Shown here one piece after another: positions 3,209 to 37,907 of a stretch of 56,322 nt of DNA; the first letter of the stretch is position 1; every line of letters starts with the position of its first letter. The notes under the pieces are model-generated. The model was not told the origin of the DNA and searched no databases. It saw only the letters and a program-made list of their open reading frames with translations. The translations under genes and the position numbers were made by a program. This DNA is from a bacterium (GTDB taxonomy: Bacteria; JAJRZV01), in assembly GCA_024275095.1 (NCBI GenBank), contig JAJRZV010000074.1, positions 1 through 56,322 of the forward strand, in the 5' to 3' direction.

Positions 3209-3345
3209 ACTTTATATTCCCCGCCCGCCCTATCCCTGAATCTTCTGGCGCGCAATCAGCACGCGCGCCTGACTTTATATTCCCCACCCGCCTGAGCGTC
3301 GTGGCGAGCAGTGGGCACACGAGCCGAACTTCACATTTCCCATTT
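3209..3345. repeat. Cluster of three degenerate direct repeats (ACTTTATATTCCCC(A/G)CCCGCC family)
   Basis: Copies at ~3209, ~3272 and ~3328 (degenerate); same family at 37454-37622 and inverted at ~15708. Confidence 0.7.
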
Positions 3346-3415
3346 CTCTAAGCCCTGCATTCCGACGTGCAACTGATACACCCGTTAAGAAAAGAAACAC
3401 AGGTCAGACTCTCAA

Positions 3416-3445
3416 TTGACAAGTTTTCAACGAGATAGTAAAAAT
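3416..3445 (+). promoter_or_regulatory. Putative sigma70 promoter for tRNA-Val/tRNA-Arg
   Basis: TTGACA at 3416-3421, 17-nt spacer, imperfect -10 TAAAAA(T), just upstream of the tRNA. Confidence 0.5.
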
Positions 3446-3457
3446 AAATTTACACGC

Positions 3458-3529
3458 AGGCACGTAGCTCAGGGGGAGAGCGCTACCTTGACATGGTAGA
3501 GGTCGGCGGTTCGAAACCGCCCGTGCCTA
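3458..3529 (+). tRNA. tRNA-Val(GAC)
   Basis: AGGCACG/CGTGCCT acceptor, GCTC/GAGC D-stem, CTACC-TTGACAT-GGTAG anticodon arm, GGCGG-TTCGAAA-CCGCC T-arm; CCA not encoded. Confidence 0.97.
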
Positions 3530-3542
3530 CAAATGTTTCCAT

Positions 3543-3692
3543 GGACGCAGGCGTGATGGTAAACACGGCGTTTTTCATACAGACACACGCAGGTTTCGAA
3601 CCGCCGACTGGCGTGAGCCACGATGCAGAGCGAGGGAGCCATAATGCGACCGAGCGAGAATACCAGGGGCGGAACAATCGCCCCTTCACGAT
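3543..3692 (+). repeat. tRNA-linked structured element (tRIP-like), copy 1
   Basis: CAGGCGTGA, then a 17-nt exact reverse complement of the tRNA-Val T-arm region (3592-3608 vs 3502-3518), TGGC-GTGA-GCCA hairpin, GAGCGAG, TTCACG. Confidence 0.7.
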
Positions 3693-3757
3693 CCACATGC
3701 ACATCCACCCAAGCACAGCTCCTGCTGCACCAGCAGGGCCCGGTTTTAAAAACCCAG

Positions 3758-3831
3758 GCGCCCGTAGCTCAACAGGACAGAGCGGCGGGCTTCGGACCCG
3801 CAGGTTGCCCGTTCGACTCGGGTCGGGCGCT
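3758..3831 (+). tRNA. tRNA-Arg(TCG)
   Basis: GCGCCCG/CGGGCGC acceptor, D-loop with A20, GCGGG-CTTCGGA-CCCGC anticodon arm, GCCCG-TTCGACT-CGGGT T-arm; followed directly by a T-run, no CCA. Confidence 0.9.
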
Positions 3832-3928
3832 TTTTTCGGTACGTGTTGATGGGTCTGTTCCAGACTGGTATTCTTTCCCGGGCAGACTGTGATGAGGGAG
3901 TCGCCACTGAATATACCCTGAGAAAGAA

Positions 3929-5062
3929 ATGAACAATCTCTTAAATACACTCGATTCAAAACTTGTAAAAAAAATTGAAGATATAAAAATCCCTTCCCTT
4001 TTGCTTGTTGTATTCCTTTTTATTATTTCGTTCTTGAGAATGTATTTTGAAGCGGTATTCATATGCGAACGATGTAATGGGATACTACCAATGGTGGTGT
4101 ATTCTCACGGAATTGCCATGTTCTTTTTCGCATATATCAGCGGAAACGTTGTTATTAAATACCTGACACACTATGATTGGTACAAGATACTCAAAATTTC
4201 CTTCATTGGTTTTTTAATTACGCTGTTACCACCGGTGATGGATGGTGTAGTCTTTGGAAGAACCACTATATATAAATACGCTAACTTTTTTTATACCCCC
4301 GAAGGTCAAAAAATGTTTTATTCTGTAAAGGACCTGTTATTCAATTTCAGCAACGATTTTGTTGGAGGGCCTGCTCTTAGAATGGAGTTCTGGTTTATCA
4401 CTTTTCTTGCTTCATTTTATGTGTTGCTGAAATCGAAGAAAATGATCCGGTGGCTGCTGGCATTTGCATTGATCATGTGTATTTTTATTTTCGTGGCATA
4501 CCAGCAATTATTATGGCATATACTAACCCATGAATTTGAGCAATGGCTGGCTTTTTTACAACAGAGACGTCTTTTCACGGTAGATAAGTTTCTTACATTT
4601 TTATGGTCTTTCTACTCTATTATCCTGCTGGTGTTGTTCTTTTTTTCAGAATTCAAAGCTTCTTTCTTTCAAAGAAAGCTATATTCTACCGTGATACTGT
4701 GCCTCGTGGGCATAACCTTTTTATCGCTTTTATTTTACAACCCATCTGTTGTGGAAATGTTTCTATACCATTTAAAATTCATGGCTGCTGCTCTTGCAAT
4801 CTCTCTGATGATCCTAATTAACGTTCCCAGCAAAGAATATCGCTTTATATCAGGTTTCCTCTTTTTACTGGCATGTCTTCAATTACCGGCTCTTTCCCCG
4901 GTCATGTTTTTTATTTTGTTGTTGATGTTACTTTGCGTTGGTATTGTTTACATCTTACAGTTAACAACACCTTTTGCTATCGTGAAAATTACCCTTCCGG
5001 CTGTGCTTATTTTCTGGGGAGTAGAAAACAGTTACTTTTTATATTTTGCGATTACACATTAA
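3929..5062 (+). CDS. Multi-pass membrane protein of unknown function (AT-rich)
   Basis: 377-aa ORF with many hydrophobic segments; visibly more AT-rich than its neighbours. Confidence 0.7.
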   Translation: MNNLLNTLDSKLVKKIEDIKIPSLLLVVFLFIISFLRMYFEAVFICERCNGILPMVVYSHGIAMFFFAYISGNVVIKYLTHYDWYKILKISFIGFLITLLPPVMDGVVFGRTTIYKYANFFYTPEGQKMFYSVKDLLFNFSNDFVGGPALRMEFWFITFLASFYVLLKSKKMIRWLLAFALIMCIFIFVAYQQLLWHILTHEFEQWLAFLQQRRLFTVDKFLTFLWSFYSIILLVLFFFSEFKASFFQRKLYSTVILCLVGITFLSLLFYNPSVVEMFLYHLKFMAAALAISLMILINVPSKEYRFISGFLFLLACLQLPALSPVMFFILLLMLLCVGIVYILQLTTPFAIVKITLPAVLIFWGVENSYFLYFAITH

Positions 5063-5128
5063 GTTTAAATCCTGAATGGTTATTTCGCATGTATTGGAAG
5101 ATAGCTCTACCATTTAGATAATTTTTCT

Positions 5129-5142
5129 ACCGAACGGTCGGT
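5129..5142. promoter_or_regulatory. Palindromic operator, PaaR/TetR-type (ACCG-N2-CG-N2-CGGT)
   Basis: ACCGAACGGTCGGT upstream of an acyl-CoA catabolic operon. Confidence 0.5.
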
Positions 5143-5359
5143 CAAGAAATGTTCTTTTTGTGTATATTTCTTGAACCCTTACCCGCCTCAGAACATACTA
5201 AACTTTTCAACGTTCTGAAATTTCATCGGGTGTTCACCGTCAGCGTATTATAAGCAATTGATTTTCCATACCTTTTGAGACTTCGAAAAATACTCCACGA
5301 ATATGAGCTCATCCATCCACATATCAATATTGAAAGGGCTGGCCAATCCTTTATGATTT

Positions 5360-6451
5360 TTGCTCGTGAAACTGGTCAACATACTTGGGGCCGGGCTTGC
5401 TGGACTGACTGCCTCCATTATTTTACGACGTAAGGGTTACAAAGTCGTTGTCCACGAACGCGAGAAAGAAATCGGGTCTTATTCCAATTTTCATCCATCC
5501 CTTCACGTAACACCTTTCGACCACGAAGCAGTAGAAGAGCTAACAGGTATCAGTTTTAAATCTGTTATCAAACCCATGAAAGAGGTGAAATATTTTTTCG
5601 AAAACCGTGCTTACGAAGCTAACGCGCCTGCTTTATACGGCGTGGAACGCTCCTCGAGACCGACTTCGGTAGATACCTTTCTGTTCAAACTCGCTGTGGC
5701 TGAAGGTGTCGAGTTTGAAATGGAAAAAGGAGATGTAAATCCGGATGAACTTCCTGATGGTTCCATTATTGCCACAGGGCTCAACCCTCTAACATTTGAA
5801 AAAATGGGATTGCCCTCCCGGCCGGTATGGGGATATGCCTTCAGGGAGGAAGTAAAAAACGATCCCCATGACGGAAAGGCTTACTGCTGGTTCTGCCATT
5901 ACGCGGATGATTACGGATACGGAGCATCCATTAACGGACTGCGTTACTTTCTGCTCTTCTCAACATTTCGCAAAATTTCTGAGGCTCAGCTTCACTCATT
6001 TCGGCAGGATTTAAAAACTCGTCTGGACATTGAGTTCGCCGAACCCATTCCCACCGCGGGAGCCGTGCCCATCGGTTCATTTACCAACCCGAGGCTGTTT
6101 CACAGGGGAAAAATCCTGGCAGGTACCATTTCAGGAACCATGGAGCCAGCACTTCTATTCGGTATTCACGGAGCCATCGTATCTGGAGCGATCGCTGCGA
6201 AAGCAGTGGAAGAACCGGGAAAAGCCCGGAAACTTTTTAAACGCATCAACCGGTACTTCCGGCGGCTTTACCTGAGCAGGCGCTGTGCAGAACTTCTGCC
6301 GCTAAAAGTAAGACACGTGATGCTGGAGACTGCCACCCGATATCCGCGTCTGCATTATTTCTACATAGCACTAATGGGCCATGGCATCCCGGGCTACCGT
6401 GGCAACTGGATATGGAAAGTACTTTTAAAGGAGGAAAGGAGCCATGCCTGA
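5360..6451 (+). CDS. FAD/NAD(P)-dependent oxidoreductase (geranylgeranyl-reductase-like flavoprotein)
   Basis: N-terminal GAGLAG dinucleotide-binding motif, IIATG, C-terminal AGTISG...FGIHGA. Confidence 0.75.
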   Translation: MLVKLVNILGAGLAGLTASIILRRKGYKVVVHEREKEIGSYSNFHPSLHVTPFDHEAVEELTGISFKSVIKPMKEVKYFFENRAYEANAPALYGVERSSRPTSVDTFLFKLAVAEGVEFEMEKGDVNPDELPDGSIIATGLNPLTFEKMGLPSRPVWGYAFREEVKNDPHDGKAYCWFCHYADDYGYGASINGLRYFLLFSTFRKISEAQLHSFRQDLKTRLDIEFAEPIPTAGAVPIGSFTNPRLFHRGKILAGTISGTMEPALLFGIHGAIVSGAIAAKAVEEPGKARKLFKRINRYFRRLYLSRRCAELLPLKVRHVMLETATRYPRLHYFYIALMGHGIPGYRGNWIWKVLLKEERSHA

Positions 6452-7244
6452 AATCTACATTAACGACTGGCCGCCCTTTTCACCTCCTGACATGAACAGG
6501 AGGGAAGGAGTAGTGGAAGCTGCAAAGCTCATGATTAATGCAGCCATGACAGCTCCCAACGCAGGAGGCGTACCTCAAATTGAAGCCCACCTTGTGTACG
6601 GGATGGACGAACAGGAAAAAATCGCCCGCACCATGGAGGAGATGGGATGGGAGGTAAGGGAGAACGTACATCTGTCGCGCATGTTCAAGTACGAAGCCCA
6701 GATGGTTCGTGAGTCAGATGCGGTGATTTTTCTGGGCAACTTTCGCGCAGCAGAAACCCCCATGGATGCAGGTTGTGGCGGATGCGGAGGCGTCGAAGAC
6801 TGCTCTTTTGTGTATGAGCGCCGTGAAAATGTGTACGGGCTTATTGACTGGACACACCGCAGAACTGACATCTATTGCGATGGGCCTCTGTGCACGGTGC
6901 GCGTGGATGATTTCGGCTATGCCGTGGGAAGTGCCCTGTGGATGGCCAACAGGTTACTGGTAGATGCGCGGGCCTATTTCACAGTGGGAGCTGCAGGAAG
7001 ACGTCTTGGGTACTGTCCCAACTCGCCCATGGTCGTGGGGGTGCTGGTAGCCGCACTTGCAAAAAATCCATATGTGGATGTGAATACAGATTATCACGTG
7101 GTCAATCTATCAAAACTTCTGGATTCCGTTCGCAAAACATATATTCTCATGCGTCAAACAGGCGGAGATTACAGGCGCTCCGACCCCGGAACAGAACGTG
7201 AACGTGAAATGAGAAAAAAGAAAAAAGACACTGAAAAGGAGTAA
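6444..7244 (+). CDS. DUF2148 ferredoxin-domain-containing protein (paralog A)
   Basis: AAMTAP, CGGCG...C...GPLC...DFGYAVGSA Cys pattern. Confidence 0.8.
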   Translation: MPEIYINDWPPFSPPDMNRREGVVEAAKLMINAAMTAPNAGGVPQIEAHLVYGMDEQEKIARTMEEMGWEVRENVHLSRMFKYEAQMVRESDAVIFLGNFRAAETPMDAGCGGCGGVEDCSFVYERRENVYGLIDWTHRRTDIYCDGPLCTVRVDDFGYAVGSALWMANRLLVDARAYFTVGAAGRRLGYCPNSPMVVGVLVAALAKNPYVDVNTDYHVVNLSKLLDSVRKTYILMRQTGGDYRRSDPGTEREREMRKKKKDTEKE

Positions 7245-7247
7245 GCC

Positions 7248-8090
7248 ATGAGCGTGTACGATGGTAATAAATTGGCCCGGGAGGCTCTTTTAGACGTGGC
7301 CAAACTGTGCGCAGCCGCAGCCCTCAAGGCTCCTCAAATCACCGGTAAAACGGAAATTAAAACATTGATTATCACCGGTGAAGACCTGGAACCCATCATC
7401 GAAGCACTGATGGTCCTCGGACGCCTGGAAATGTTCAACATGCTTTCCTATCTGTGCTGGAAAAACCTCTATGACCAGGGGCGCCCTCCTGTGTTGCTTT
7501 TAATTGGCACAAAGGTGAGGGCTTCTGATCTTAACTACAACTGCGGCGGCTGCGGTTTTCTCACCTGTGCTGAATTCAACCGGTATACAAAAACAGTGGA
7601 ACCCAATCCACGACTTATGATCCGCGGCCCTGCCTGCCAGTGGAAAATCATGGATTTCGCCATTGCATGTGACTGGGCAGCTGCTGCAGCATGGCAGTAC
7701 AACATCACCAACCGCGTGGAGATTGCAACAGGTATGGCCGCATCCGCGCTCGGGTACCTTCCTGATTGCGACGTCGTAATGGGACTTCCGGTGGGACCCA
7801 ACGAAGACCTTTACTGGTACTCACGTGATGTTCTTACCTACATGCTCCCCCACGAGATGTGGCACGAACGAACAATCAAGGACTTCCCCACCCTCTTCGC
7901 AACCTTCCCGGGCAACGGGAGACAGGAGCTGAAACTAACGGAAAAGTGGTGGAAGCAACCCTATGTGAGGTCCTATCAGGCAAAATCTTTTGAAGAAATG
8001 GAACAGTTAAGAGAAGGTATAGACAAAGACCTTGCGGAACTTCGCGAAAAGTGGAAGGAAAGAATACAAAAACTTAATAACAATAATTAA
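7248..8090 (+). CDS. DUF2148 ferredoxin-domain-containing protein (paralog B)
   Basis: AALKAP, NCGGCGFLTC...GPAC...DFAIA Cys pattern. Confidence 0.8.
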   Translation: MSVYDGNKLAREALLDVAKLCAAAALKAPQITGKTEIKTLIITGEDLEPIIEALMVLGRLEMFNMLSYLCWKNLYDQGRPPVLLLIGTKVRASDLNYNCGGCGFLTCAEFNRYTKTVEPNPRLMIRGPACQWKIMDFAIACDWAAAAAWQYNITNRVEIATGMAASALGYLPDCDVVMGLPVGPNEDLYWYSRDVLTYMLPHEMWHERTIKDFPTLFATFPGNGRQELKLTEKWWKQPYVRSYQAKSFEEMEQLREGIDKDLAELREKWKERIQKLNNNN

Positions 8091-8115
8091 TAACAAATAA
8101 AAAGGAGGTGCAACC

Positions 8116-8529
8116 ATGGCTTTGTTTCCATCAGAAGAGTGGTTCAGAGAAATGGAAAAGATCCTGGCCAGCGACGAGGAATATAAAAAGGCGGGAGCCG
8201 AATGGGATGATGACGTCATTATGGTGATAGAGAAGGAACCCGGAAAATTGGAAGAGGACTTTATCTGGTACTCCAAGTCCAAAGGCGGTGAAATACTGGA
8301 GTCCGGTCCCCTGAAAAGTATTGATGAAAAAAATGCAGCGTATGTAATCTCCGGCCCTTACTCAGCCTGGAAAGCTATTGTGACCAGAGAAATGGATGCC
8401 ATGCAGGCCATGCTCCGTGGCAAAATACGGGTAAAAGGCGATATGCAGAAGCTCCTCAGGTTCACAAAATACCAGCAACTTGGAATGAAGGCTCTACAGC
8501 AGGTAGAGACCTCTTTCCCTGACGAATAG
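8116..8529 (+). CDS. SCP2 sterol/lipid-binding domain protein
   Basis: FPSEEW start and ...YSAWKAIV...DAMQAMLRGKIRVKGD signature; AGGAGG RBS. Confidence 0.85.
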   Translation: MALFPSEEWFREMEKILASDEEYKKAGAEWDDDVIMVIEKEPGKLEEDFIWYSKSKGGEILESGPLKSIDEKNAAYVISGPYSAWKAIVTREMDAMQAMLRGKIRVKGDMQKLLRFTKYQQLGMKALQQVETSFPDE

Positions 8530-8572
8530 AGGAAAACTTTTGTAAACAATAAAACAAGCGAGGTGAAAACAC

Positions 8573-9952
8573 ATGAATGAAAGACCTTACTGGAACATGA
8601 AAATTGAACCCCTGCTTAACACACCTGACATCATTCCCATTCAACAAAAAAATATGCAACAGACACTGGAGGATCTGTATCATAACGCACCTTACTGGAG
8701 AAAAAGGTTCGATGAGTTGAAAGTCAAGCCTGAACAGATAAAAACGACTGACGACCTTGCCAGCGCATTTCCTCCACTCACAAAAGACGATGTTCGTGCA
8801 GCCATGATGGAATTTATGGGTGAGGCCGGACCAAGAGGTGCTGTTGAGGGATTTATGCCAGCGAGCATATCCGACCTCGTGCTCATGTGTACCACCTCTG
8901 GAACAACGGGAGAACCAACCCCCTACTTCTTTACCCAGAGAGACCTGGAGCTCTGGTACGAAAGCATCAGCCGTGCTTTCTGGCGGGCCGGGCTCAGGCC
9001 GGGAATGGTCGTCATACATGCCATGGCCCTCAGTATGTTCGCTGCAGGTGTTCCCGGTGTTCAGGCGCTGGAGCATTTCGGAGCACTGGCTATACCAATG
9101 GGCGCGGAAGCAGGTTCCGAGAGACTTCTTTCCTTTGCCCGACTTTACAGTGCCCTCATCGGTATAGACGGGATTGTATGCACTCCATCCTATGCAGAAT
9201 ACCTCATAGAAAAAGCACCAGAGGTCATTGGAGACAGCCTGACCTCGATTGGTATCAAAGTGGTTTTCTGCGGAGGTGAGCCCGGTGCAGGAATTCCTGA
9301 AGTGCGGAAAAAAATCATGGAAGGTTTCGGGGCAAAGGTGTTCGATGCCATGGGCATGGGACCGATCCTGTGGGCTTCATGTGACCATGAAGAATACCAG
9401 GGGATGCACTTCGTAACAGAAGACACCTGCATTCTTGAGCTGGTTGACCCTGAAACAAAAGAATGCATTCCCGTGGAAGATGGAGCTGAAGGAGCAATTG
9501 TTCTCACCCCACTGCTGAGCAAAGGGCTTTCGGTTATTCGACACATTGTCGGTGATGTGGCCCGTATAGAAACATCACCGTGCCCATGCGGCAAAACCGG
9601 CAAACGCGTAAGAATTATCGGGCGTGTGGATGATATGCTGAAAGTCAAAGGAGTTATGGTTTACCCTGCAGCCATTGACGGAGTGATCGCGTCATTCGTC
9701 CCCCGGGTTACAGGTGAATTCAGAATCGTGCTTACTGAACCACCACCGCGCGTAACTCCGCCACTCAAGCTCAAAGTAGAATACGGTGAAGGTATAAGCG
9801 AAGAAGAACTACCTGCGCTGGCGAAGGAAATCGCTGATAAGATGCACGACAGGCTCAGGATTCGCCCGGAAATCCAGTGGGTTCCGCCTAAAACGCTTGA
9901 ACGCTCTGTCCATAAGACCCGGTTTATCGAAAAGGCTTACGAGAAGAAATAA
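8573..9952 (+). CDS. Phenylacetate-CoA ligase (PaaK) family adenylate-forming enzyme
   Basis: TTSGTTGEPT P-loop, GGEPG, GD...CPCG...IIGRVDDMLKVKGVMVYP. Confidence 0.88.
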   Translation: MNERPYWNMKIEPLLNTPDIIPIQQKNMQQTLEDLYHNAPYWRKRFDELKVKPEQIKTTDDLASAFPPLTKDDVRAAMMEFMGEAGPRGAVEGFMPASISDLVLMCTTSGTTGEPTPYFFTQRDLELWYESISRAFWRAGLRPGMVVIHAMALSMFAAGVPGVQALEHFGALAIPMGAEAGSERLLSFARLYSALIGIDGIVCTPSYAEYLIEKAPEVIGDSLTSIGIKVVFCGGEPGAGIPEVRKKIMEGFGAKVFDAMGMGPILWASCDHEEYQGMHFVTEDTCILELVDPETKECIPVEDGAEGAIVLTPLLSKGLSVIRHIVGDVARIETSPCPCGKTGKRVRIIGRVDDMLKVKGVMVYPAAIDGVIASFVPRVTGEFRIVLTEPPPRVTPPLKLKVEYGEGISEEELPALAKEIADKMHDRLRIRPEIQWVPPKTLERSVHKTRFIEKAYEKK

Positions 9953-9984
9953 GAATTAAACACTATTCAGGTCAGGAGAAACCA

Positions 9985-10407
9985 ATGAAAGCAAAACCCC
10001 GAGGGATACCCGTAGTAAAAAAGTTTTTCAGGGAGACTCCGGAGGGTATAGAAGTTATTGCTTCACGCTGTTCCCGGTGTGGTTCGTATTTTTTTCCTGT
10101 GAAAAAAGTGTGTCCTCACTGTCTTGACGAAACGATGGAGGAAGTACCAATTTCTGGTAAGGGAACACTCATTTCCTTTTCCGTTTCGTATGATGGACTT
10201 CGGGGAATCAAACCACCTTATGCTTTCGGATATGTAAAGCTGAAAGAAGGGTTTATGCTTTTTTCTCTCCTTACGGATTGCGAACCGTTTGAAGAAAAGC
10301 TCAAAATCGGAATGCCGGTGGAAATGGTGATAGAAGAAATGGGTGAAGATTTTTACGGAAACGTTCTGTATACCTACAAGTTCAGGCCGTCGGAGGATCA
10401 GTCATGA
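9985..10407 (+). CDS. DUF35 Zn-ribbon/OB-fold protein (thiolase partner, BbsA/ChsH2-like)
   Basis: CxxC...CxxC rubredoxin-like motif followed by OB fold; overlaps the thiolase start. Confidence 0.88.
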   Translation: MKAKPRGIPVVKKFFRETPEGIEVIASRCSRCGSYFFPVKKVCPHCLDETMEEVPISGKGTLISFSVSYDGLRGIKPPYAFGYVKLKEGFMLFSLLTDCEPFEEKLKIGMPVEMVIEEMGEDFYGNVLYTYKFRPSEDQS

Positions 10408-11564
10408 GAAAAACAGCTGTGGTGGGGGCAGCTCAAACCCCCTTTGGAAAACTTTACGAGCGTGATACACGTGACCTTGCAGAAGAGGCTGTGTTCAAGG
10501 CACTGAAGGATGCCGGCGCCCGTCCCTCTGATATCCAGGTTGCATTTGTAGGCAGCGGTGGAATGGATCCCACCACTCCCATGATGATAGGCCAGATAGC
10601 TCTTGAACAACTGGGAATCAAAGGTATTCCCATTACACGTGTGGAAAATGCATGTGCAAGTGGCTCCAATGCCTTCCACCTTGCCTGGCTGGCAGTGCAA
10701 ACCGGCATGTACGATGTTGCCCTTGCCCTGGGCGTAGAAAAAATGTCCACACCAACACCTGAACAGGCTCGCATGGCCATGCGACTTGGTGGCGGAGATG
10801 CACTTCTCGAAGGCTCCATGGGGCTATTTCCACCTGGTATATTCGCCATGATCGCTCAAATTTATATGGAAAAGTACGACTGCCGCCGTGAAGACCTTGC
10901 CATGATATCTGTCAAAAATCACAAACACGCTTCTCTTAATCCACTGGCTCAATATCAAAAAGAAGTGACTCTCGAGGAGGTAATGAATTCACGGCAGGTC
11001 GCTTATCCCCTTGGGGTGCTGGATTGCTGCCCCATCTCTGACGGAGCTGCATGCGCCATCATTGCCTCCGAAGACGCTGTTAAACGCTTTTCCAGCAAGC
11101 CTGTATGGATCAGAGCTTCTGTACAGGTTTCAGGAACATATGAGGACCTCGATGACCTTCGTCCTGACACCACACAACGTGCAGGATTTCAGGCATATGA
11201 AATGGCGGGTGTGGGCCCGGAAGATATTGATCTCGCCGAGGTGCACGATTGTTTTACATTTGCAGAAATCATGCATTACGAGGACCTGGGATTCTGCAAC
11301 CTGGGCGAAGGAGCCAGGTATATACGAGAGGGCAAACCATTCCTGGGCAGGGAAAAGCCTGTCAATACATCAGGTGGACTGCTTGCAAAAGGACATCCTC
11401 TCGCTGCGACAGGAATCGCCCAGGTATATGAAATTGTACAGCAACTCAGAGGACAGGCGGGACCCAGGCAGGTGGAAGGTGCACGCATAGGACTTACGCA
11501 CAACGGAGGCGGCTTTCGCCACGGAGACGTTGGGATAGTCACGGTTCATATACTGGAAAGGTGA
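10404..11564 (+). CDS. SCP-x type thiolase family protein
   Basis: ENACASG, EVHDCF, GGLLAKGHPLAATG, HNGGG. Confidence 0.9.
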   Translation: MRKTAVVGAAQTPFGKLYERDTRDLAEEAVFKALKDAGARPSDIQVAFVGSGGMDPTTPMMIGQIALEQLGIKGIPITRVENACASGSNAFHLAWLAVQTGMYDVALALGVEKMSTPTPEQARMAMRLGGGDALLEGSMGLFPPGIFAMIAQIYMEKYDCRREDLAMISVKNHKHASLNPLAQYQKEVTLEEVMNSRQVAYPLGVLDCCPISDGAACAIIASEDAVKRFSSKPVWIRASVQVSGTYEDLDDLRPDTTQRAGFQAYEMAGVGPEDIDLAEVHDCFTFAEIMHYEDLGFCNLGEGARYIREGKPFLGREKPVNTSGGLLAKGHPLAATGIAQVYEIVQQLRGQAGPRQVEGARIGLTHNGGGFRHGDVGIVTVHILER

Positions 11565-11576
11565 TAAAGGTGATGT

Positions 11577-11888
11577 TCAGCGTAATATAGCCACCATTAT
11601 GGCCAGAAAGGTGGTGATCTGGATGCCGATAATCCAGAGAAAAAACCGAGAGAACTTCAAATCTAAACTATCCACTCTTGCTTCAAGACGAACAATGCGA
11701 GCTGATAATTCCTCGCGGTACCTTTCCACCTTCAGTTCAAGGGAGTATATTCGCTGTGAGAGCTCTTCCTTGTTTCGATCTGTTTTACCATCCATTGCCA
11801 ACACCAGATCCTTCAGGTCCTCCCAGGCATGAGAATGCTCTGTGACACGCCCTTCAAGATAAGCACCACGTTCCTCCAGCGTGGGCAT
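11577..11888 (-). CDS. Small coiled-coil protein with C-terminal TM helix (CCDC90/DUF1640-like)
   Basis: LEERxAYLEG, heptad repeats, WIIGIQITTFLAIM tail; AGGAGGGG RBS. Confidence 0.7.
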   Translation of the reverse strand: MPTLEERGAYLEGRVTEHSHAWEDLKDLVLAMDGKTDRNKEELSQRIYSLELKVERYREELSARIVRLEARVDSLDLKFSRFFLWIIGIQITTFLAIMVAILR

Positions 11889-11962
11889 TTTCTACCCCTC
11901 CTTTTTAAAACCAATATTTCTTCATATGAAGCGATTTAATATATGACGAAGGAGGTGCATGA

Positions 11963-12715
11963 ATGAAACTTGAAAATCGTATCGCCATTGTTACAGGCGC
12001 TGGTTCCGGAATCGGCCGGTCCATAGCCCTCGCCTTTGCCCGGGAAGGAGCGTCTGTACTTATTGCCGAAATTGATGAAGAAAAAGGTAAACAGGTGGAA
12101 AAGGAAATCCACAACTCTGGAAAAAGAGCGCTTTTTGTGCGCACAGATGTTGCCTCCCTGAGTGACATTAAGGAAGCTGTACAGGCATGTGTGAATTCCC
12201 TGGGTCCCCCTGACATTCTCGTGAATAATGCAGGTGTTGAATTTATGGGTACCATAGATTCATTTACAGAAGAGCAATTTGACAGGCTCATCGGTGTTAA
12301 CCTCAAAGGGGCCTTTTTCTTTTCAGCCCGGGTAATAGAACACATGCGTCAGAAGGGAAAAGGCAAAATTATTAACATCTCTTCAGTAGCAGCGTTCTGC
12401 GGTGCACCTCTTCTGAGCCTCTACTCCTCCTCAAAAGGTGGTCTTGTAGGTCTCACAAAGGCACTGGCGGTGGAGCTTGCACCCATGAAAATTACTGTTA
12501 ACGCCATTTGCCCGGGATTCATTGAAACAAACATGACCGCCCTTTATCTTTCAGTAGAAGAGGTGAAGAAAGAGGTACTGTCGCGCACACCCCTTGAGCG
12601 CATCGGCGATCCCGAAAAGGATATCGCACCGCTTGCTGTGTATCTTGCCTCAGATGATTCAGATTTTATAACAGGCCAAGCGTTCATCGTGGATGGAGGA
12701 TTTTCCGTGCTGTAA
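11963..12715 (+). CDS. Short-chain dehydrogenase/reductase (FabG-like)
   Basis: TGAGSGIG, NNAG, YSSSK catalytic motif. Confidence 0.92.
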   Translation: MKLENRIAIVTGAGSGIGRSIALAFAREGASVLIAEIDEEKGKQVEKEIHNSGKRALFVRTDVASLSDIKEAVQACVNSLGPPDILVNNAGVEFMGTIDSFTEEQFDRLIGVNLKGAFFFSARVIEHMRQKGKGKIINISSVAAFCGAPLLSLYSSSKGGLVGLTKALAVELAPMKITVNAICPGFIETNMTALYLSVEEVKKEVLSRTPLERIGDPEKDIAPLAVYLASDDSDFITGQAFIVDGGFSVL

Positions 12716-12724
12716 TTAAAAAAC

Positions 12725-12762
12725 GTTCGCGTCAACCGGAACTTCAGCCCGTTGACGCGAAC
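12725..12762 (+). terminator. 12-bp perfect hairpin after the SDR gene (possible terminator or mRNA-stabilising stem)
   Basis: GTTCGCGTCAAC-14 nt-GTTGACGCGAAC; no strong U-tract. Confidence 0.5.
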
Positions 12763-12848
12763 TGTACAAAGCTGACACCTGCAACTTTTTCATTCTTCAA
12801 TTGTTATAAAAAGTGAAAACACACAAAAAGCACATAGGAGGTGCAGTC

Positions 12849-14078
12849 ATGAGTAAGTGGAAAATGTTTGCAGGAGCTGGGGTTATGCTTTCGCTGGGGA
12901 TTCTCATTGCAGCCTGCGGGGGCGAGAAACTTGCAGATGTATCAGGCGATGATGCTGTCAGTTACGTCAGCGATACGATGGAACTCCTGGATCCAGCCGA
13001 ATACTCCGAAATGCTCGGTACATGGAGCCCCCAAAGCGAACTTCAGCTGGCACCCCTGGCAGTTGATGACCCGGTGCTGGCAGAAGCACGAAAAGTCCTC
13101 GTGTTCCTCAACCCCAATATCATACGCCGCAGAGGTGACCTCCTTCGCGCAATAGAGGCTCCACTCCACATCGCACGCTACTTCGGCGCGCTTTACAAAG
13201 CCGGCGATGCAGAATGCCTCCAGCAGGTCTCAGGAATCGAGGATTGCGCTGCCTCAATACTCACATCCGGTGAATGCATCATCGAATACGCAACTACCAC
13301 TACCGGCTGCTCCGCAGAAATCTACGTGGCCGGCGCCTCTCACACCATTACCCTTACCGGGGATCTCAGCGTAACCATCTCCCCTCTTTCCGAAAACAGC
13401 TTTAAAGTCACCGCCGTGCCAGAGAACCTCAAAGTCACAGGAGACGATGGTAGATACCTCATATACAACGGTACCGTCACCAAAACCATCACACTCACAC
13501 CTGACAGAACCGGACACACCTCCGTGCTCGTGGCAAACGGCCTCACCATCGAAGACTCCGCCGGCGCTGTAGGCACCGCTGACGGCGTCAGGACAGTCAA
13601 CGTGATCTACGACCAGTCTTTTGAAGCTCATAACGTGGGGACCCTCACCTATACCCCTCCCGATGGTGGTGAAACCGTTGTAATCCAAGTAGATATACTC
13701 AGACAGGTCACGATTGATGGAGATACCAGAACAATCCACGTGGAAGATAAAGTCACCACAAACGGTGTCGAAAGAACAAGAACTCTCGACATCACCATCG
13801 AAGGCATGTTCACAGAAGGAGACATGCTTCAAGAACTGGTGGTCAACGGCACCGCATCCTTCAGCGGTCCAAGAGGTGAAGCAAACATCACCTTTACTGA
13901 CCTCACCATCGACGTCACCTGCCCTCACAATCCTGTAGGAGGAACCATCGAAATATCAGGAAAACGTACCATCACCATCACTTTTGCTGAAAACTGCTCA
14001 TGCCAAGCCACCCTCACATGGGATGACGGAACCGTAGAGGAAATCAACTCCTGTAACCAGCGATCACTGAGGCGCTGA
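12849..14078 (+). CDS. Beta-rich, Thr-rich lipoprotein of unknown function
   Basis: AGGAGG RBS, signal peptide with LIAA-C lipobox, paired cysteines. Confidence 0.75.
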   Translation: MSKWKMFAGAGVMLSLGILIAACGGEKLADVSGDDAVSYVSDTMELLDPAEYSEMLGTWSPQSELQLAPLAVDDPVLAEARKVLVFLNPNIIRRRGDLLRAIEAPLHIARYFGALYKAGDAECLQQVSGIEDCAASILTSGECIIEYATTTTGCSAEIYVAGASHTITLTGDLSVTISPLSENSFKVTAVPENLKVTGDDGRYLIYNGTVTKTITLTPDRTGHTSVLVANGLTIEDSAGAVGTADGVRTVNVIYDQSFEAHNVGTLTYTPPDGGETVVIQVDILRQVTIDGDTRTIHVEDKVTTNGVERTRTLDITIEGMFTEGDMLQELVVNGTASFSGPRGEANITFTDLTIDVTCPHNPVGGTIEISGKRTITITFAENCSCQATLTWDDGTVEEINSCNQRSLRR

Positions 14079-14113
14079 TGCGCTGATCGGGTTTAAAGCA
14101 TGGATACTCCGTA

Positions 14114-14142
14114 GGGGGGCGGGGTCCCGCCCCCCTTTTTTT
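14114..14142 (+). terminator. Rho-independent terminator
   Basis: GGGGGGCGGG-GT-CCCGCCCCCC hairpin followed by T7, between convergent genes. Confidence 0.85.
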
Positions 14143-14157
14143 CATATCAGGCCTGTG

Positions 14158-15327
14158 TTAATTTTCTATTCTTTCGATAATTGTGATAGGTGCCATGCCT
14201 CCACCAGTACACAGTGTCACCATTCCATAACGTCCACCGATTCTCTCCAGCTCGTAAAGCGCCTTCGTTACGAGTATGGCACCTGTGGCTCCCAGGGGAT
14301 GACCCAGAGCGATAGCTCCACCATTGGGGTTCACCTTTTCCCAATCAGGGTTAATCTCTTTTCCCCACGCAAGAGGTACAGATGCAAAGGCCTCGTTAAT
14401 CTCAATGACATCCATGTCGTTGATGGAAAACCCCGTCTTCTGGAGAATCTTTTTTGTAGCCGGTATAGGACCGGTAAGCATCATTACGGGGTCGTCGGCT
14501 GCCACATCCATGGCCACAATTCTGGCACGTGGCTTTAAGCCAAGTTTCTCAGCTTTTTGTCTTGTCATAATAAGCACCGCTGCCGCGCCATCGCTTATCT
14601 GGCTGGAGTTGCCCGCTGTAATTTTGCCGTCGGGTTTAAACGCAGGCTGAAGCGCCCCTAACTTCTCCATTGACGTGTCAAACCTCACGCCCTCATCGGT
14701 ATCCATTAATTCCTTCGTCCCATCGTCCAGTGTTACTTCCAAGGGTACAATCTGAGATTTAAAACGTCCTTCTTCTATGGCCCTCGCCGCCTTTCTGTGG
14801 CTCTCCAGGCTGAATGCATCCAGCTCCTCGCGTGAAAGTCCCCACTTGTCTGCGACCATTTCCGCTGAAAGACCCTGCGGCACGATATTGAACCGTTCTG
14901 AAACCTTTGATGCAAAAGGATTGCCTCCAACAGCGATGTTGGTACCCATGGGCACGCGATCCATGCTCTCCACACCTGCCGCGAGAATACAATCGTGAAC
15001 TCCTGACATGACAGCCATAGCAGCGAGGTTTACAGTGGTGAGACTCGAACCACACTGCCTGTCAACACTGATTCCGGGAACCTCAACAGGCAGGCCAGCA
15101 GCAAGAACGGCGTTGCGGCCAATATCAAGTGCCTGGTCACCCACCTGAGACACGCATCCCATGTACACATCTTCAATTTCCAGAGGGTCTATCCCTGTAC
15201 GTTGCACAATTTCCCGGAGGACAACCGCTGCCATGTCAACCGGATGATAATTCTTGAGTTTGCCTTTACGTCTTCCAACAGGTGTTCTTACTGCTTCAAC
15301 GATTACAGCTTCTCTTCCCGTATTCAT
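14158..15327 (-). CDS. Acetyl-CoA C-acyltransferase (canonical thiolase)
   Basis: RQCGSS, NEAFA, GHPLGATG, CTGGG motifs. Confidence 0.93.
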   Translation of the reverse strand: MNTGREAVIVEAVRTPVGRRKGKLKNYHPVDMAAVVLREIVQRTGIDPLEIEDVYMGCVSQVGDQALDIGRNAVLAAGLPVEVPGISVDRQCGSSLTTVNLAAMAVMSGVHDCILAAGVESMDRVPMGTNIAVGGNPFASKVSERFNIVPQGLSAEMVADKWGLSREELDAFSLESHRKAARAIEEGRFKSQIVPLEVTLDDGTKELMDTDEGVRFDTSMEKLGALQPAFKPDGKITAGNSSQISDGAAAVLIMTRQKAEKLGLKPRARIVAMDVAADDPVMMLTGPIPATKKILQKTGFSINDMDVIEINEAFASVPLAWGKEINPDWEKVNPNGGAIALGHPLGATGAILVTKALYELERIGGRYGMVTLCTGGGMAPITIIERIEN

Positions 15328-15521
15328 TGAAAACCTCCTTCAAAGGTATATTAAAGAAATACCAATAATAACACCGGGAAATAACAATGCAAAGTTTTTA
15401 CAACAGCATGTTTTATAAATATTTTTGAAACATACAATACAAAACTCGAACAAAATGGAGATTTTCCATCCAACATTCAAGCATCACCAATCCCGGATCC
15501 TGAAAGACAACCCGACCTCCA

Positions 15522-15702
15522 CCAGTCACTGCGAGGAATATCATCGTGACCCCGCCGTCTTTTATCCTGTTATTGCGAATCCTGCTTTGGCAGCACGAAG
15601 CAATTCCCGGTGCATGCTCCAGCACATCAATAAGGCGTGTTTGAAACCCGGGATTGCTTCGCTCATCCCCTGCAATGCAGGAAAGTTGCTCGCAATGACT
15701 GG
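15522..15702. repeat. REP-like nested palindrome cluster (GTCA(C/T)TGCGAG ... GAAGCAAT / GATTGCTTC ... CTCGCAATGAC)
   Basis: CCAGTCACTGCGAG / CTCGCAATGACTGG outer arms; CGAAGCAATTCCCGG / CCCGGGATTGCTTCG inner arms. Confidence 0.8.
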
Positions 15703-15724
15703 CAGATGGGGAATATAAAAAATA

Positions 15725-15820
15725 GCGTGAATTATATGCTCGCTCCGCTCGCCCACTGCCTCACGGCAGTTCGAATCCCACCACACAGTTGATAATTTAG
15801 ACAATATTCACGCCTGATCC
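15725..15820 (-). repeat. tRNA-linked structured element (tRIP-like), copy 2
   Basis: On the minus strand: CAGGCGTGA, 14-nt reverse complement of the tRNA-Ser T-arm, ACTGCC-GTGA-GGCAGT hairpin, GAGCGAG, TTCACG. Confidence 0.7.
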
Positions 15821-15841
15821 TTCGTGGATAACTGCCCGTTA

Positions 15842-15930
15842 CAGAGGGGGTGGGATTCGAACCCACGATCCCCGGGTAAGGGGATACACGCTCTCCAGGC
15901 GTGCGCCTTCGTCCACTCGGCCACCCCTCC
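15842..15930 (-). tRNA. tRNA-Ser(GGA)
   Basis: GGAGGGG acceptor, CACGC-CTGGAGA-GCGTG anticodon arm, long variable arm, GTGGG-TTCGAAT-CCCAC T-arm, G discriminator; no CCA. Confidence 0.96.
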
Positions 15931-16157
15931 GGCTGTTTCAGAACATTATAAAAATAGCAGAGCGGCTGCGATTTTTCCAGGGACACTTCCCCGGATAACA
16001 CACCCTGCCAGTAAATAACCAAGACAGTAAATACCCTTTCCCGTTGAAAAAAAGATTCGAAATGTCTCTAAAACATAACCCCTGCACCGAAACACCCCGC
16101 CTTGTCGGAGCTGATGAGATGTGGTTTAATTCAGAAAACACTTCTTCAGGAGCGGAA

Positions 16158-17117
16158 ATGCTGAAGGAAATCCGCAAAGGCGAAAAAGGTGCACTCGCCC
16201 GTGCCATCACCGAAATTGAAAGAGGGACCTCACAGGGACAGGAAATATTAAGCCAGCTGGACAAAGGATTTTTAAACGCATACGTCATCGGTATTACCGG
16301 ACCATCCGGGGCCGGTAAGTCCACCCTGCTGAATGCCCTGGCAAATGAATACGTGGCCTCAGGAGAAAAAGTGGCCATACTGGCGGTGGATCCCACCTCG
16401 CCTTTTTCCGGAGGCGCCCTTCTCGGTGACCGCCTGCGCATGAACTCTCTTGCACTGAATCCGTCTGTATTTATACGAAGTATTGGTTCACGAGGGCGAC
16501 AGGGCGGTATATGTCCCATGGCATCCGATATTATCCGGGTCATGGACGCTGCCGGTTACCCTCTCATCTTCGTGGAAACAGTTGGAATTGGACAGGCAGA
16601 GGTGGAAGTAATGGATATCGCAGATACCGTTGTACTCGTAATTACTCCTGATTACGGAGACGGAATTCAAACTCTCAAAGCCGGAGTCATGGAAATTGCA
16701 GACATTTTTGTAATCAACAAGGCCGACAAGTACGATGCTTCGGCATTCGCTTCCGAACTTCGTACAATTCTGGAAATGTCCCGCAACAACTCCAATCCGT
16801 GGCAGAAACCTGTCATAGTAGCCTCTGCTCGCCGTAAGGAAGGAATTAACGAACTCAAAGATGCAATTGAAGCCCACAAGAAATTTCTTACTGAAACAAA
16901 ACTACTCGAAAAGCAGCGCTTTCAGCGACGACTCAAGGAATTTGCAGGGTCACTCGCCTCTGCAATTTCACAAAATATTAAAGAAATGATCAGTGGCGGT
17001 GAGTTCAAGGACCTGGAAAAGCTTATCGCAGAGGGTGCTTCTTCATTACATATAAAAAAGCAGCTTGTAAAAAAACTCCTGGAGGATCCCGATGCTATTG
17101 AAAAAGTATTTGGTTAA
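16158..17117 (+). CDS. meaB: Methylmalonyl-CoA mutase-associated GTPase MeaB/ArgK
   Basis: GPSGAGKST, AVDPTSPFSGGALLGDRLRM, ETVGIGQ, NKAD; alternative start at 16119. Confidence 0.92.
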   Translation: MLKEIRKGEKGALARAITEIERGTSQGQEILSQLDKGFLNAYVIGITGPSGAGKSTLLNALANEYVASGEKVAILAVDPTSPFSGGALLGDRLRMNSLALNPSVFIRSIGSRGRQGGICPMASDIIRVMDAAGYPLIFVETVGIGQAEVEVMDIADTVVLVITPDYGDGIQTLKAGVMEIADIFVINKADKYDASAFASELRTILEMSRNNSNPWQKPVIVASARRKEGINELKDAIEAHKKFLTETKLLEKQRFQRRLKEFAGSLASAISQNIKEMISGGEFKDLEKLIAEGASSLHIKKQLVKKLLEDPDAIEKVFG

Positions 17118-37653: not shown

Positions 37654-37831
37654 GTCACTGCGAGGAGTTACACCAAAGGCAGGACGACGAACCAGTCCCA
37701 GAGATTGCTTCGCACTGCTATAGCAGCGCTCGCAATGACGGCGCTTCCTCAGTCACTGCGAGGAGCGAGCACGCCTCTGGTAAATGCCCTTACCAGTCAT
37801 TGCGAGGGAGCGAAGCGACCGAAGCAATCTC
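37654..37831. repeat. REP-like palindrome cluster (GTCA(C/T)TGCGAG family)
   Basis: GTCACTGCGAG 37654, GATTGCTTCG..CTCGCAATGAC to 37739, GTCACTGCGAG 37752, GTCATTGCGAG..GAAGCAATCTC 37796-37831. Confidence 0.85.
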
Positions 37832-37907
37832 ACCCCCACACACCCCACCGCGACTGAAACCTCAGCATTGAACCCCGAATGTCCAATGTTGAGACCAGAC
37901 CCCGGGG

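Follow-up and report, generated by a model that had tools for sequence, protein, structure and literature searches.

The gene-less element behind a tRNA-Ser (GGA) gene in the DNA analysed here, a contig of 56,322 nucleotides that we call the window (contig C39), is probably the tRNA-proximal part of a module of the RtT or TLR kind, in a divergent form specific to its lineage. The Ser copy is an incomplete unit, without the distal repeat of the tRNA tail. The genome from which the window comes (2.45 Mb in 136 contigs, 97% complete) carries approximately 17 such modules behind its 45 predicted tRNA genes, or behind about a third of them. A preliminary description of this DNA had proposed a recurring tRNA-linked element that is fitted to each tRNA, and this proposal holds across 13 to 17 copies of the genome. 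The description overlooked the match to the E. coli RtT/TLR layout and the absence of the distal tail repeat from the Ser copy.

On the tRNA strand, the Ser module reads in the order tRNA, spacer, antisense arm, hairpin, GTGGGC, GAGCGGAGCGA, ATATAAT and a GC-rich stretch (Table 1). It contains no gene, and it lies 58 nt behind tRNA-Ser on the same strand. Specifically, the arm at 15769-15782 and the tRNA segment at 15849-15862 are identified by the repeat finder as an inverted pair of 14 nt, 66 nt apart and 100% complementary, just as the preliminary description had claimed. The arm is the complement of positions 70-83 of tRNA-Ser(GGA). The spacer is shared solely with the paralogous tRNA-Ser(TGA) locus (G000:C89:45-245, with 75% identity across tRNA, spacer and module) and not with copies at other tRNAs. 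Another copy in the same window stands behind tRNA-Val, where a spacer of 61 nt separates the gene from its antisense arm.

Table 1. Positions of the tRNA genes and module parts in the window
Feature	Position	Strand	Basis or remark
tRNA-Ser (anticodon GGA), host gene of the Ser module	15841-15931	-	ARAGORN
Rfam tRNA match to tRNA-Ser	15842-15930	-	55.5 bits
Spacer of 58 nt from the tRNA-Ser 3' end to the module	15783-15840	-	Local DNA
Ser antisense arm: T-loop, T-stem 3' strand and first acceptor base of tRNA-Ser	15769-15782	-	Repeat finder
Ser hairpin ACTGCC-GTGA-GGCAGT, 6-bp stem	15755-15770	-	Flanking AC/GT counted
Ser hairpin core TGCC-GTGA-GGCA	15757-15768	-	4-bp stem, 15757-15760 with 15765-15768; loop 15761-15764
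GAGCGGAGCGA box with a C-GGA-G mini-hairpin motif inside	15740-15750	-	Motif scan; alignment A3
ATATAAT and GC-rich block, conserved among copies	15725-15737	-	-10-like hexamer at 15731-15736; alignment A3
Match of core model R1 to the Ser copy	15724-15780	-	55.6 bits, E 4.5e-11; copy is in the seed alignment
tRNA-Val (GAC)	3458-3530	+	ARAGORN; Rfam tRNA
Val antisense arm, 17 nt, tRNA-Val positions 45-61 (variable loop, T-stem 5' strand, T-loop)	3592-3608	+	
Val hairpin TGGC-GTGA-GCCA	3609-3620	+	Directly after the arm
Val core: hairpin, degenerate GAGCG box, ATAAT block	3597-3663	+	R1 39.1 bits, E 1.2e-6; in the seed

Within 400 nt of tRNA-Ser(GGA), the tRNA tail is not repeated in direct orientation over 10 nt or more. 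The distal part of the unit is missing from this copy, since the adjoining stretch at 15520-15705 is built of units of another dispersed palindromic repeat, which has a second site at 37680-37850. A candidate for a decayed tail repeat at about 15650-15655 (AATCCC after GAGCGAAGC) was dropped because it falls in this different repeat. A scan of 15300-16100 reveals no terminator-like sites, and its only promoter-like sites are near 15365-15425, outside the Ser module. In the same scan, no -35 partner is recognisable for the TATAAT block. The Rfam model for the Xanthomonas small RNA sX4 (RF02223) gives a weak match at 15776-15947, which runs over the tRNA, spacer and arm. At 28.6 bits it lies far below the threshold of 70; the match is probably just the tRNA part plus a hairpin, and the Ser module is not treated as a member of that family.

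The hairpin that accompanies the antisense arm covaries among copies. Both of the hairpins compared in the preliminary description, ACTGCC-GTGA-GGCAGT in the Ser copy and TGGC-GTGA-GCCA in the Val copy, are present as claimed, and the compensatory change proposed from them recurs in additional copies. In a gap-free alignment of 13 copies (alignment A2), three of the four stem pairs show compensatory change. The 4-bp stem comprises 52 cells in this alignment, of which 90.4% are paired, versus 73.0 +/- 4.1% in 500 shuffles, and 10 cells are changed on both sides, versus 3.4 expected; no shuffle reaches either observed value, and both figures carry some ascertainment bias because the hairpins were chosen by eye beside the antisense arm. 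When the partner strand is slid by one to three columns, pairing drops to 33-54%. In two of the 13 rows (Ala and Arg-CCG), the loop measures 3 nt and the row falls out of register, an observation that speaks against the structure.

The preliminary description also saw the element as enclosed by an inverted pair, GCGTGAAT/ATTCACGC. The two sequences are indeed present, at 15725-15732 and 15806-15813, but the enclosure is not general in the family. Nor is it beyond chance, as nine inverted pairs of at least 8 nt occur in a stretch of 601 nt. Of its two arms, the left one falls within the spacer, which is non-homologous between copies, and the right one (15725-15732) belongs to the conserved TATAAT-GCGCG block.

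Elsewhere in the source genome, exact inverted self-matches of at least 10 nt are found within 400 nt downstream of 19 of the 45 tRNA genes and upstream of one. When local alignment is used instead, 16 tRNA genes have an inverted self-alignment score of at least 10 within 130 nt downstream. These include both tRNA-Gln(TTG) copies, which are located at two contig ends; a degenerate inverted match is present at tRNA-Ser(TGA). Each arm is private to its own tRNA, and the matches are tRNA-specific, reaching 24 exact nt at tRNA-Trp, rather than being limited to the generic GTTCGAA core of the T-arm. The segment covered varies, from positions 41-68 in Trp and 45-61 in Val to 66-85 in Leu-CAA and 70-83 in Ser-GGA. 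Spacers between tRNA and arm are mostly 54-63 nt long, and the arm mostly stands 75-85 nt from the T-loop. The spacers of 15 copies are dissimilar in sequence (105 pairs, median z of approximately 0).

The remainder of the module is conserved from copy to copy. An alignment of 12 copies (alignment A3) holds, in order, the hairpin, GTGG, GAGCGGAGCGAGC, ATATAAT, G.GCGCG and TGTGG. Exact matches to GAGCGGAGCGA number nine in the genome, and seven of these are on the same strand as a tRNA and roughly 80-110 nt behind it. A covariance model of the shared core, R1, was built from 12 copies of the source genome and returns 15 places genome-wide at E<=1. These correspond to 14 loci, because contigs C59 and C129 have overlapping ends that represent one locus. 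Thirteen of the 14 loci are on the same strand behind a tRNA, the remaining one (C104) lacks its upstream DNA because the contig ends there, and none is found elsewhere. Twelve of the 14 loci are in the seed; the two outside it are the tRNA-Phe copy and the second of the units that follow tRNA-Ser(GCT). When BLAST was run against 40 and against 150 genomes of the same domain, none of them closer, the matches cover the tRNA part only.

[quoted passage not shown] The repeats are 16-26 nt long and begin in or just before the T-loop, and the one behind tRNA-His extends to 76 nt. A seventh repeat, at the tRNA-Gln on contig C121, is degenerate. Among seven whole units with a distal repeat, the predicted minimum-energy fold pairs the arm with the repeat in three, and the folding z values range from -3.7 to +0.5, which are weak statistics.

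This arrangement closely resembles that of the E. coli units. In the tyrT-tyrV unit of E. coli K-12, which is 178 bp long, the tRNA or tail repeat is followed by a spacer of 54-59 nt. The arm, 22 nt long, is antisense to the T-arm and four acceptor bases, and its T-loop complement is altered to GATGAGAAG/C. After the arm, the E. coli units carry the T-stem 5' strand and half of the T-loop in a short direct copy, then a GAGCG..AGCGAG box and a GC hairpin, and they close with the final 19 nt of the tRNA, which run from the T-loop to CCA. In the Rfam RtT consensus, the outer stem is the antisense arm paired with the tail repeat.

With RtT, the source-genome modules have in common their same-strand position behind a tRNA, a spacer of about 55-60 nt, an antisense T-arm copy on the 5' side of the unit, a box of the GAGCG..AGCGA type, small GC hairpins and the absence of genes. 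Like RtT, the complete copies also possess a tail repeat that starts in the T-loop, have a unit length of about 180-220 nt and can be tandem. The source-genome modules differ from RtT in that the hairpin comes before the box, no direct "GGTTCGA" half T-arm is present, the T-loop complement is unaltered in most copies and the tail repeat usually takes in the whole T-loop. Unlike the E. coli units, they carry the TATAAT/GCGCG block. The Ser copy departs further from TLRs, as its 3' end lacks the last 18-19 nt of the upstream tRNA. The tRNA-Gln copy has the altered T-loop complement GATGAGAAC, as do E. coli RtT and the locus L086 described next.

When a collection of genomes was scanned with the hairpin-to-box motif of the window, most matches were chance occurrences in GC-rich genomes, and two were real look-alikes. 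One (L086) is located behind tRNA-Ser(CGA) in a gammaproteobacterial MAG and the other (L021) behind tRNA-Lys in a Halobellus MAG. The Rfam RtT model (RF00391) matches L086 with 55 bits against a threshold of 45 (E 1e-8 to 2e-10), and a weak, sub-threshold sX4 match is present there as well. The same model finds no match at E<=1 in positions 3300-16200 of the window, and no match at E<=10 in 17 source-genome loci or in the whole genome. On 150 diverse genomes it yields a single sub-threshold match (G102, 31.7 bits). In the reverse comparison, R1 matches E. coli RtT, L086 and the Halobellus units weakly (E 0.06-2). The case for homology with RtT is therefore built on layout and short motifs, with L086 as the bridge, as no alignment is significant, and the modules are filed as RtT-like by these features rather than as members by alignment. 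On sequence grounds, we regard the source-genome copies as a divergent branch that the Rfam RtT model leaves undetected. A strict form of the source-genome core motif has one match on metagenome contigs, in a coding-like stretch with no tRNA, and we read it as chance.

E. coli TLRs have been known since 1978, and the account in PMC8144298 presents them without an established function or origin, citing Egan & Landy (1978), Rudd (1999) and Bosl & Kersten (1991) among the sources on TLR, RtT and rttR. [quoted passage not shown] Three that follow 5S rRNA are described there as transcribed by read-through of the terminator and then processed, and the authors suggest that the repeated end guides RNase E cleavage (PMC8144298). 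An early claim that E. coli RtT acts in the stringent response is reported as withdrawn, and the function is given as unknown (PMC8144298). The supplementary figures of that paper include TLR alignments across Enterobacterales, which may bear on how far the family has been traced before. For RtT homologues in Actinobacillus, PMC4986893 reports Northern signals. A literature search with the box sequence and related words returned primers and unrelated papers only.

The breadth of the layout is best demonstrated by a simple pattern, in which a common T-arm word is followed after 60-90 nt by GGATGAGAACC. This pattern occurs at no fewer than 120 loci, versus 8 loci in a complete scan with a control in which the 11-mer was permuted. 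Among the matches listed are Enterobacterales, other Gammaproteobacteria, Alpha- and Deltaproteobacteria, Bacteroidota, Verrucomicrobiota, Planctomycetota, Fibrobacter, Bacillota, Coriobacteriales, Saccharibacteria, Gottesmanbacteria, Gracilibacteria, Poribacteria and one archaeon of the Methanobacteriota. The arm extends by at least 3 nt toward the acceptor end, complementary to its own tRNA, in 57 of the 120 matches listed, and by at least 3 nt toward the variable loop in 37 of them; each extension is expected by chance in about 1.6%.

Further parts of the layout can be assessed in the 108 matches listed that have at least 150 nt of downstream DNA. A tail repeat, scored as a 12-mer with at most one mismatch, is present in 75 of these 108, with a median unit of 175 nt, and the units among the matches listed are about 100-260 nt long. 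Direct GGTTYG occurs within 40 nt past the arm in 85 of the 108 matches listed. The insert contains GCGNAGC, a C-GNA-G mini-hairpin, on the tRNA strand in 45 of them (4.8% of shuffles) and GAGCGNAGCGA in 16 (0 of 2200 shuffles). The left edge of the tail repeat is 0-3 nt before the T-loop ATCC in every one of the 75 repeats among the matches listed, and the most common repeat length is 18 nt. Again among the matches listed, 32 of the 75 repeats continue at least 12 nt past CCA, and 15 run through the whole spacer.

The Halobellus units are compact. In the Halobellus genome the box has 12 occurrences, versus none for a reversed control, and minimal units composed of an arm, about 20-27 nt and a tail repeat stand behind tRNA-Lys, tRNA-Pro (two units) and tRNA-Met. 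Across the Halobellus units (L021, L129 and L143), only about 35-40 nt separate arm and repeat. In these units and in the cross-phylum modules (L164-L283), the antisense arm matches the local tRNA, as it does in the source-genome modules, and the tail repeat and the GAGCGNAGCGA or C-GNA-G loop motifs are further shared features. Most cross-phylum modules differ from those of the source genome in carrying the altered GATGAGAAC and an insert inside a second, direct copy of the T-arm.

Attachment-site cores used by integrases at tRNA genes span the region from the T-loop to near the tRNA 3' end. The direct repeats described above have this extent, both among the matches listed (mode of 18 nt) and in the source genome (16-26 nt), and the modules might accordingly be scars of islands that were integrated at tRNA genes and then lost. 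We disfavor this explanation and consider it highly improbable. A conserved internal core is common to modules at different tRNAs, the layout recurs in many phyla, and the units listed are only about 100-260 nt long. The antisense arm is foreign to ordinary attachment scars, and the Ser copy has no direct repeat at all. Moreover, only two tyrosine recombinase genes are present in the genome, one on C129, about 21 kb away from the closest module, and the other on C6, and neither is adjacent to a module.

The same repeats, viewed together with the arms, raise another possibility, namely that the modules are non-autonomous mobile elements that target the tRNA T-loop. The arm would serve as an RNA or single-stranded DNA guide, and insertion would copy the tail of the target to give the direct repeat. 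Such an element could account for the occurrence of modules, with individually matched arms, behind a wide range of tRNAs, and for the copies at C59/C129 and C104, whose cores of about 100 nt are near-identical while arm and hairpin are different. The sharp T-loop edge of all 75 tail repeats listed, the continuation of some of them past CCA or through the whole spacer, and the T-loop-to-arm distance that is mostly constant in the source genome are likewise in its favor. The over-represented C-GNA-G motifs also fit, being best known as very stable DNA hairpins.

Regardless of these points, we judge such a mobile element to be unlikely, in part because no candidate enzyme was found. Searches for reverse transcriptase, IS110 and TnpB-type proteins gave no match in the genome (97% complete), and rve-type matches number two. 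Three matches to Y1 transposases are RAYT-like proteins with a DnaA C-terminal domain, and their genes are flanked by a different inverted repeat of 24-35 nt, which assigns them to another repeat system. The variable coverage of the tRNA by the arms, as seen in the four ranges given above, is unexpected for a fixed guide. Similarly, the duplicated spacers can be explained equally well by tandem amplification followed by decay, and for this reason the long spacer duplication was rejected as a target-site duplication.

Two specific sources of mobility also lack support. For a REP/RAYT system, the module core flanks none of the three RAYT-like genes, and for a transposon directed by a guide RNA (IS110 bridge RNA, TnpB/IscB), no IS110 or TnpB-type gene was found in the genome. 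The folded single-strand attachment site of phage CTX and the primer-binding sites of retroelements also place the complement of a target or primer near a direct copy, inside the element. This likeness is an analogy only, as the modules carry neither phage nor retroelement genes.

Given that the arm is perfectly complementary to 14-28 nt of its cognate tRNA, it might instead act as an antisense regulator of that tRNA in cis or in trans, sequestering the T-arm to influence folding, processing or availability, with the tail repeat as an internal decoy. Copies without a tail repeat, such as Ser, provide the arm with no other partner. A thermodynamic fold of pre-tRNA-Ser plus trailer, an analysis recommended in the preliminary description, does predict pairing between arm and T-arm, but the fold is no better than those of shuffled sequences (z = -1.25). 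This result weighs against a regulator, as does the fact that the tRNA segment covered differs from copy to copy. In addition, most of the cross-phylum matches listed carry two fixed mismatches in the T-loop complement, and the stringent-response effect once attributed to E. coli RtT has, as noted in PMC8144298, been withdrawn. Together these observations make regulation of the tRNA by its module quite doubtful.

A related candidate role at the RNA level, a CsrA sponge acting through GGA loops by analogy with E. coli RrB, was rejected because no CsrA gene was found. This negative result argues against carrying over the CsrA-binding role shown in vitro for TLRs of E. coli rRNA operons.

In keeping with the RtT/TLR reading that we favor, the module would be transcribed by read-through as a trailer of the tRNA and would fold into a hairpin-rich RNA. 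In complete units the antisense arm would pair with the tail repeat, and the module might then be released as a small RNA by-product by the enzymes that process tRNA ends, as reported for E. coli RttR and RrB. The Ser copy presumably lost the distal repeat or never had it, and its arm could pair only with the T-arm of the tRNA itself because that repeat is absent.

How, then, does each arm come to match its tRNA? We hypothesize that the fit arises by copying at the level of DNA. Unequal crossing-over between the tRNA tail and its repeat could contribute, as could template switching or gene conversion between the two T-arm copies, which are inverted and lie close together, with the tRNA acting as the master copy under selection. 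Template switching is an established process that corrects imperfect inverted repeats, and correction of this type would preserve the match of the arm to the tRNA under selection. A dedicated enzyme that uses a guide would be unnecessary.

DNA copying accounts for the fit better than selection for pairing does, since the segment covered varies, the arm tracks the tRNA rather than the repeat, and spacers are duplicated. Specifically, at 11 positions where the tRNA and tail repeat differ among the cross-phylum matches listed, the arm follows the tRNA at six, neither at five and the repeat at none. The absence of any position at which the arm follows the repeat means that there is no sign of compensatory selection on an arm-repeat stem, and the overall pattern fits copying from the tRNA or simple decay. 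The duplicated spacers, for their part, fit tandem amplification by unequal crossing-over, by analogy with the E. coli tyrT array.

A broader extension of this idea is that modules of the RtT/TLR type might be pan-prokaryotic, gene-less elements that fit themselves to their hosts and spread among tRNAs by T-loop-centred copying that acts on single-stranded DNA. Template switching during replication or transcription would be driven by the T-arm hairpin, its antisense copy and the stable C-GNA-G mini-hairpins. Each new copy would thereby gain both a forward and an inverted copy of the arm of its host. We offer this extension tentatively, as a possibility that is on balance rather doubtful.

Modules of the RtT/TLR kind are not new in themselves. 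What is new is a lineage-specific branch, its density at about a third of the tRNA genes of one genome, and support for spread across domains. To the existing picture of TLRs, these findings add that an antisense T-arm copy fitted to each tRNA is part of the layout, that the layout is present in many bacterial phyla and in archaea, and that a deep-branching genome holds, at about a third of its tRNA genes, a divergent branch missed by Rfam. There are also practical consequences. Several contigs of the source genome end inside modules, which break assemblies at tRNA loci. The modules can also pass for guide RNAs or for scars left by integration.

If the modules are functional RNAs, then they constitute a widespread and unannotated class that rides on tRNA operons. 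If they are selfish, then they represent a mobile element without a known enzyme. Finally, if the single-stranded DNA copying scheme is true, the source genome, with modules at about a third of its tRNAs and no obvious transposase, would be a natural test case.

The module behind tRNA-Ser(GGA), which lacks the distal tRNA-tail repeat of complete copies, is adjoined in the window by several units of a dispersed palindromic repeat that is distinct from the tRNA-linked module. The units are centred on the arrangement CATTGCGAG ... hairpin ... GCGAAGCAAT. The motif of this repeat has 13-24 matches in the genome, most of them not near tRNAs. The distal part of the tRNA-Ser module has probably been replaced by these units.

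A box-bearing insert on the 5′ side of tRNA-Pro(TGG) is bounded by a 59-nt direct repeat comprising the upstream flank and the initial 15 nt of the gene, and is a 5′-side variant of the tRNA-linked module. The same tRNA-Gln(TTG) stands at the ends of two contigs, in both cases with the same spacer, antisense arm and hairpin; the sequences part beyond the hairpin, with box and core following in one and missing from the other. Either the genome has two copies of this gene, or strains in the sample differ here.

Features noted in the genome (contigs of GCA_024275095.1; the window is JAJRZV010000074.1)
Feature	Location	Remark
Dispersed palindromic repeat	window 15520-15705	
Dispersed palindromic repeat	window 37680-37850	
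Box-bearing insert 5′ of tRNA-Pro(TGG)	C13:21150-21400	locus L159
tRNA-Gln(TTG), contig end	C24:7953-8024	
tRNA-Gln(TTG), contig end	C121:65615-65686	
REP-associated Y1 tyrosine transposase genes (3)	C36:30069-30392; C108:41156-41482; C55:5211-5534	loci L293-L295
"tRNA-Pro (ggg)"	C69:14846-14930	ARAGORN, 85 nt

The proteins encoded by the three transposase genes are ~320-330 aa long and contain both a REP-associated Y1 tyrosine transposase domain and a DnaA C-terminal DNA-binding domain. Each gene (3/3) carries on both flanks inverted repeats of 24-35 nt of the GGGGTC.GGTCT type, a 15-nt word of which occurs 35 times in the genome, in some cases behind tRNA-Leu genes.

The 45 predicted tRNA genes on which our module counts are based include the doubtful "tRNA-Pro (ggg)", which differs in look from the remaining tRNAs of this genome and may be a false call. 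Among the compared sets of 40 and 150 genomes there is no relative closer than "same domain", and the organism seems isolated among the species compared.

The Rfam family sX4 (RF02223) gives a weak match (28.6 bits; threshold 70) to positions 15776-15947 (minus strand), a stretch that takes in tRNA-Ser, the spacer behind it and a portion of the antisense arm. Comparable weak matches are found at a gammaproteobacterial tRNA-Ser locus (L086) and at two other loci (L150, L152). The sX4 family itself may be a tRNA plus trailer hairpin.

Away from tRNA genes, GAGCGGAGCGA lies in the loop of hairpins formed by local sequence and its inverted copy, in metagenome-assembled genomes of Halobellus (L139, L140), Saccharibacteria (L085) and Paludibacteraceae (L041). 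One of these examples lies 3′ of a stop codon, one has a stem of ~35 bp, and tandem units measure 70 nt or ~280 nt. The box may mark a broader class of hairpin-forming inserts.
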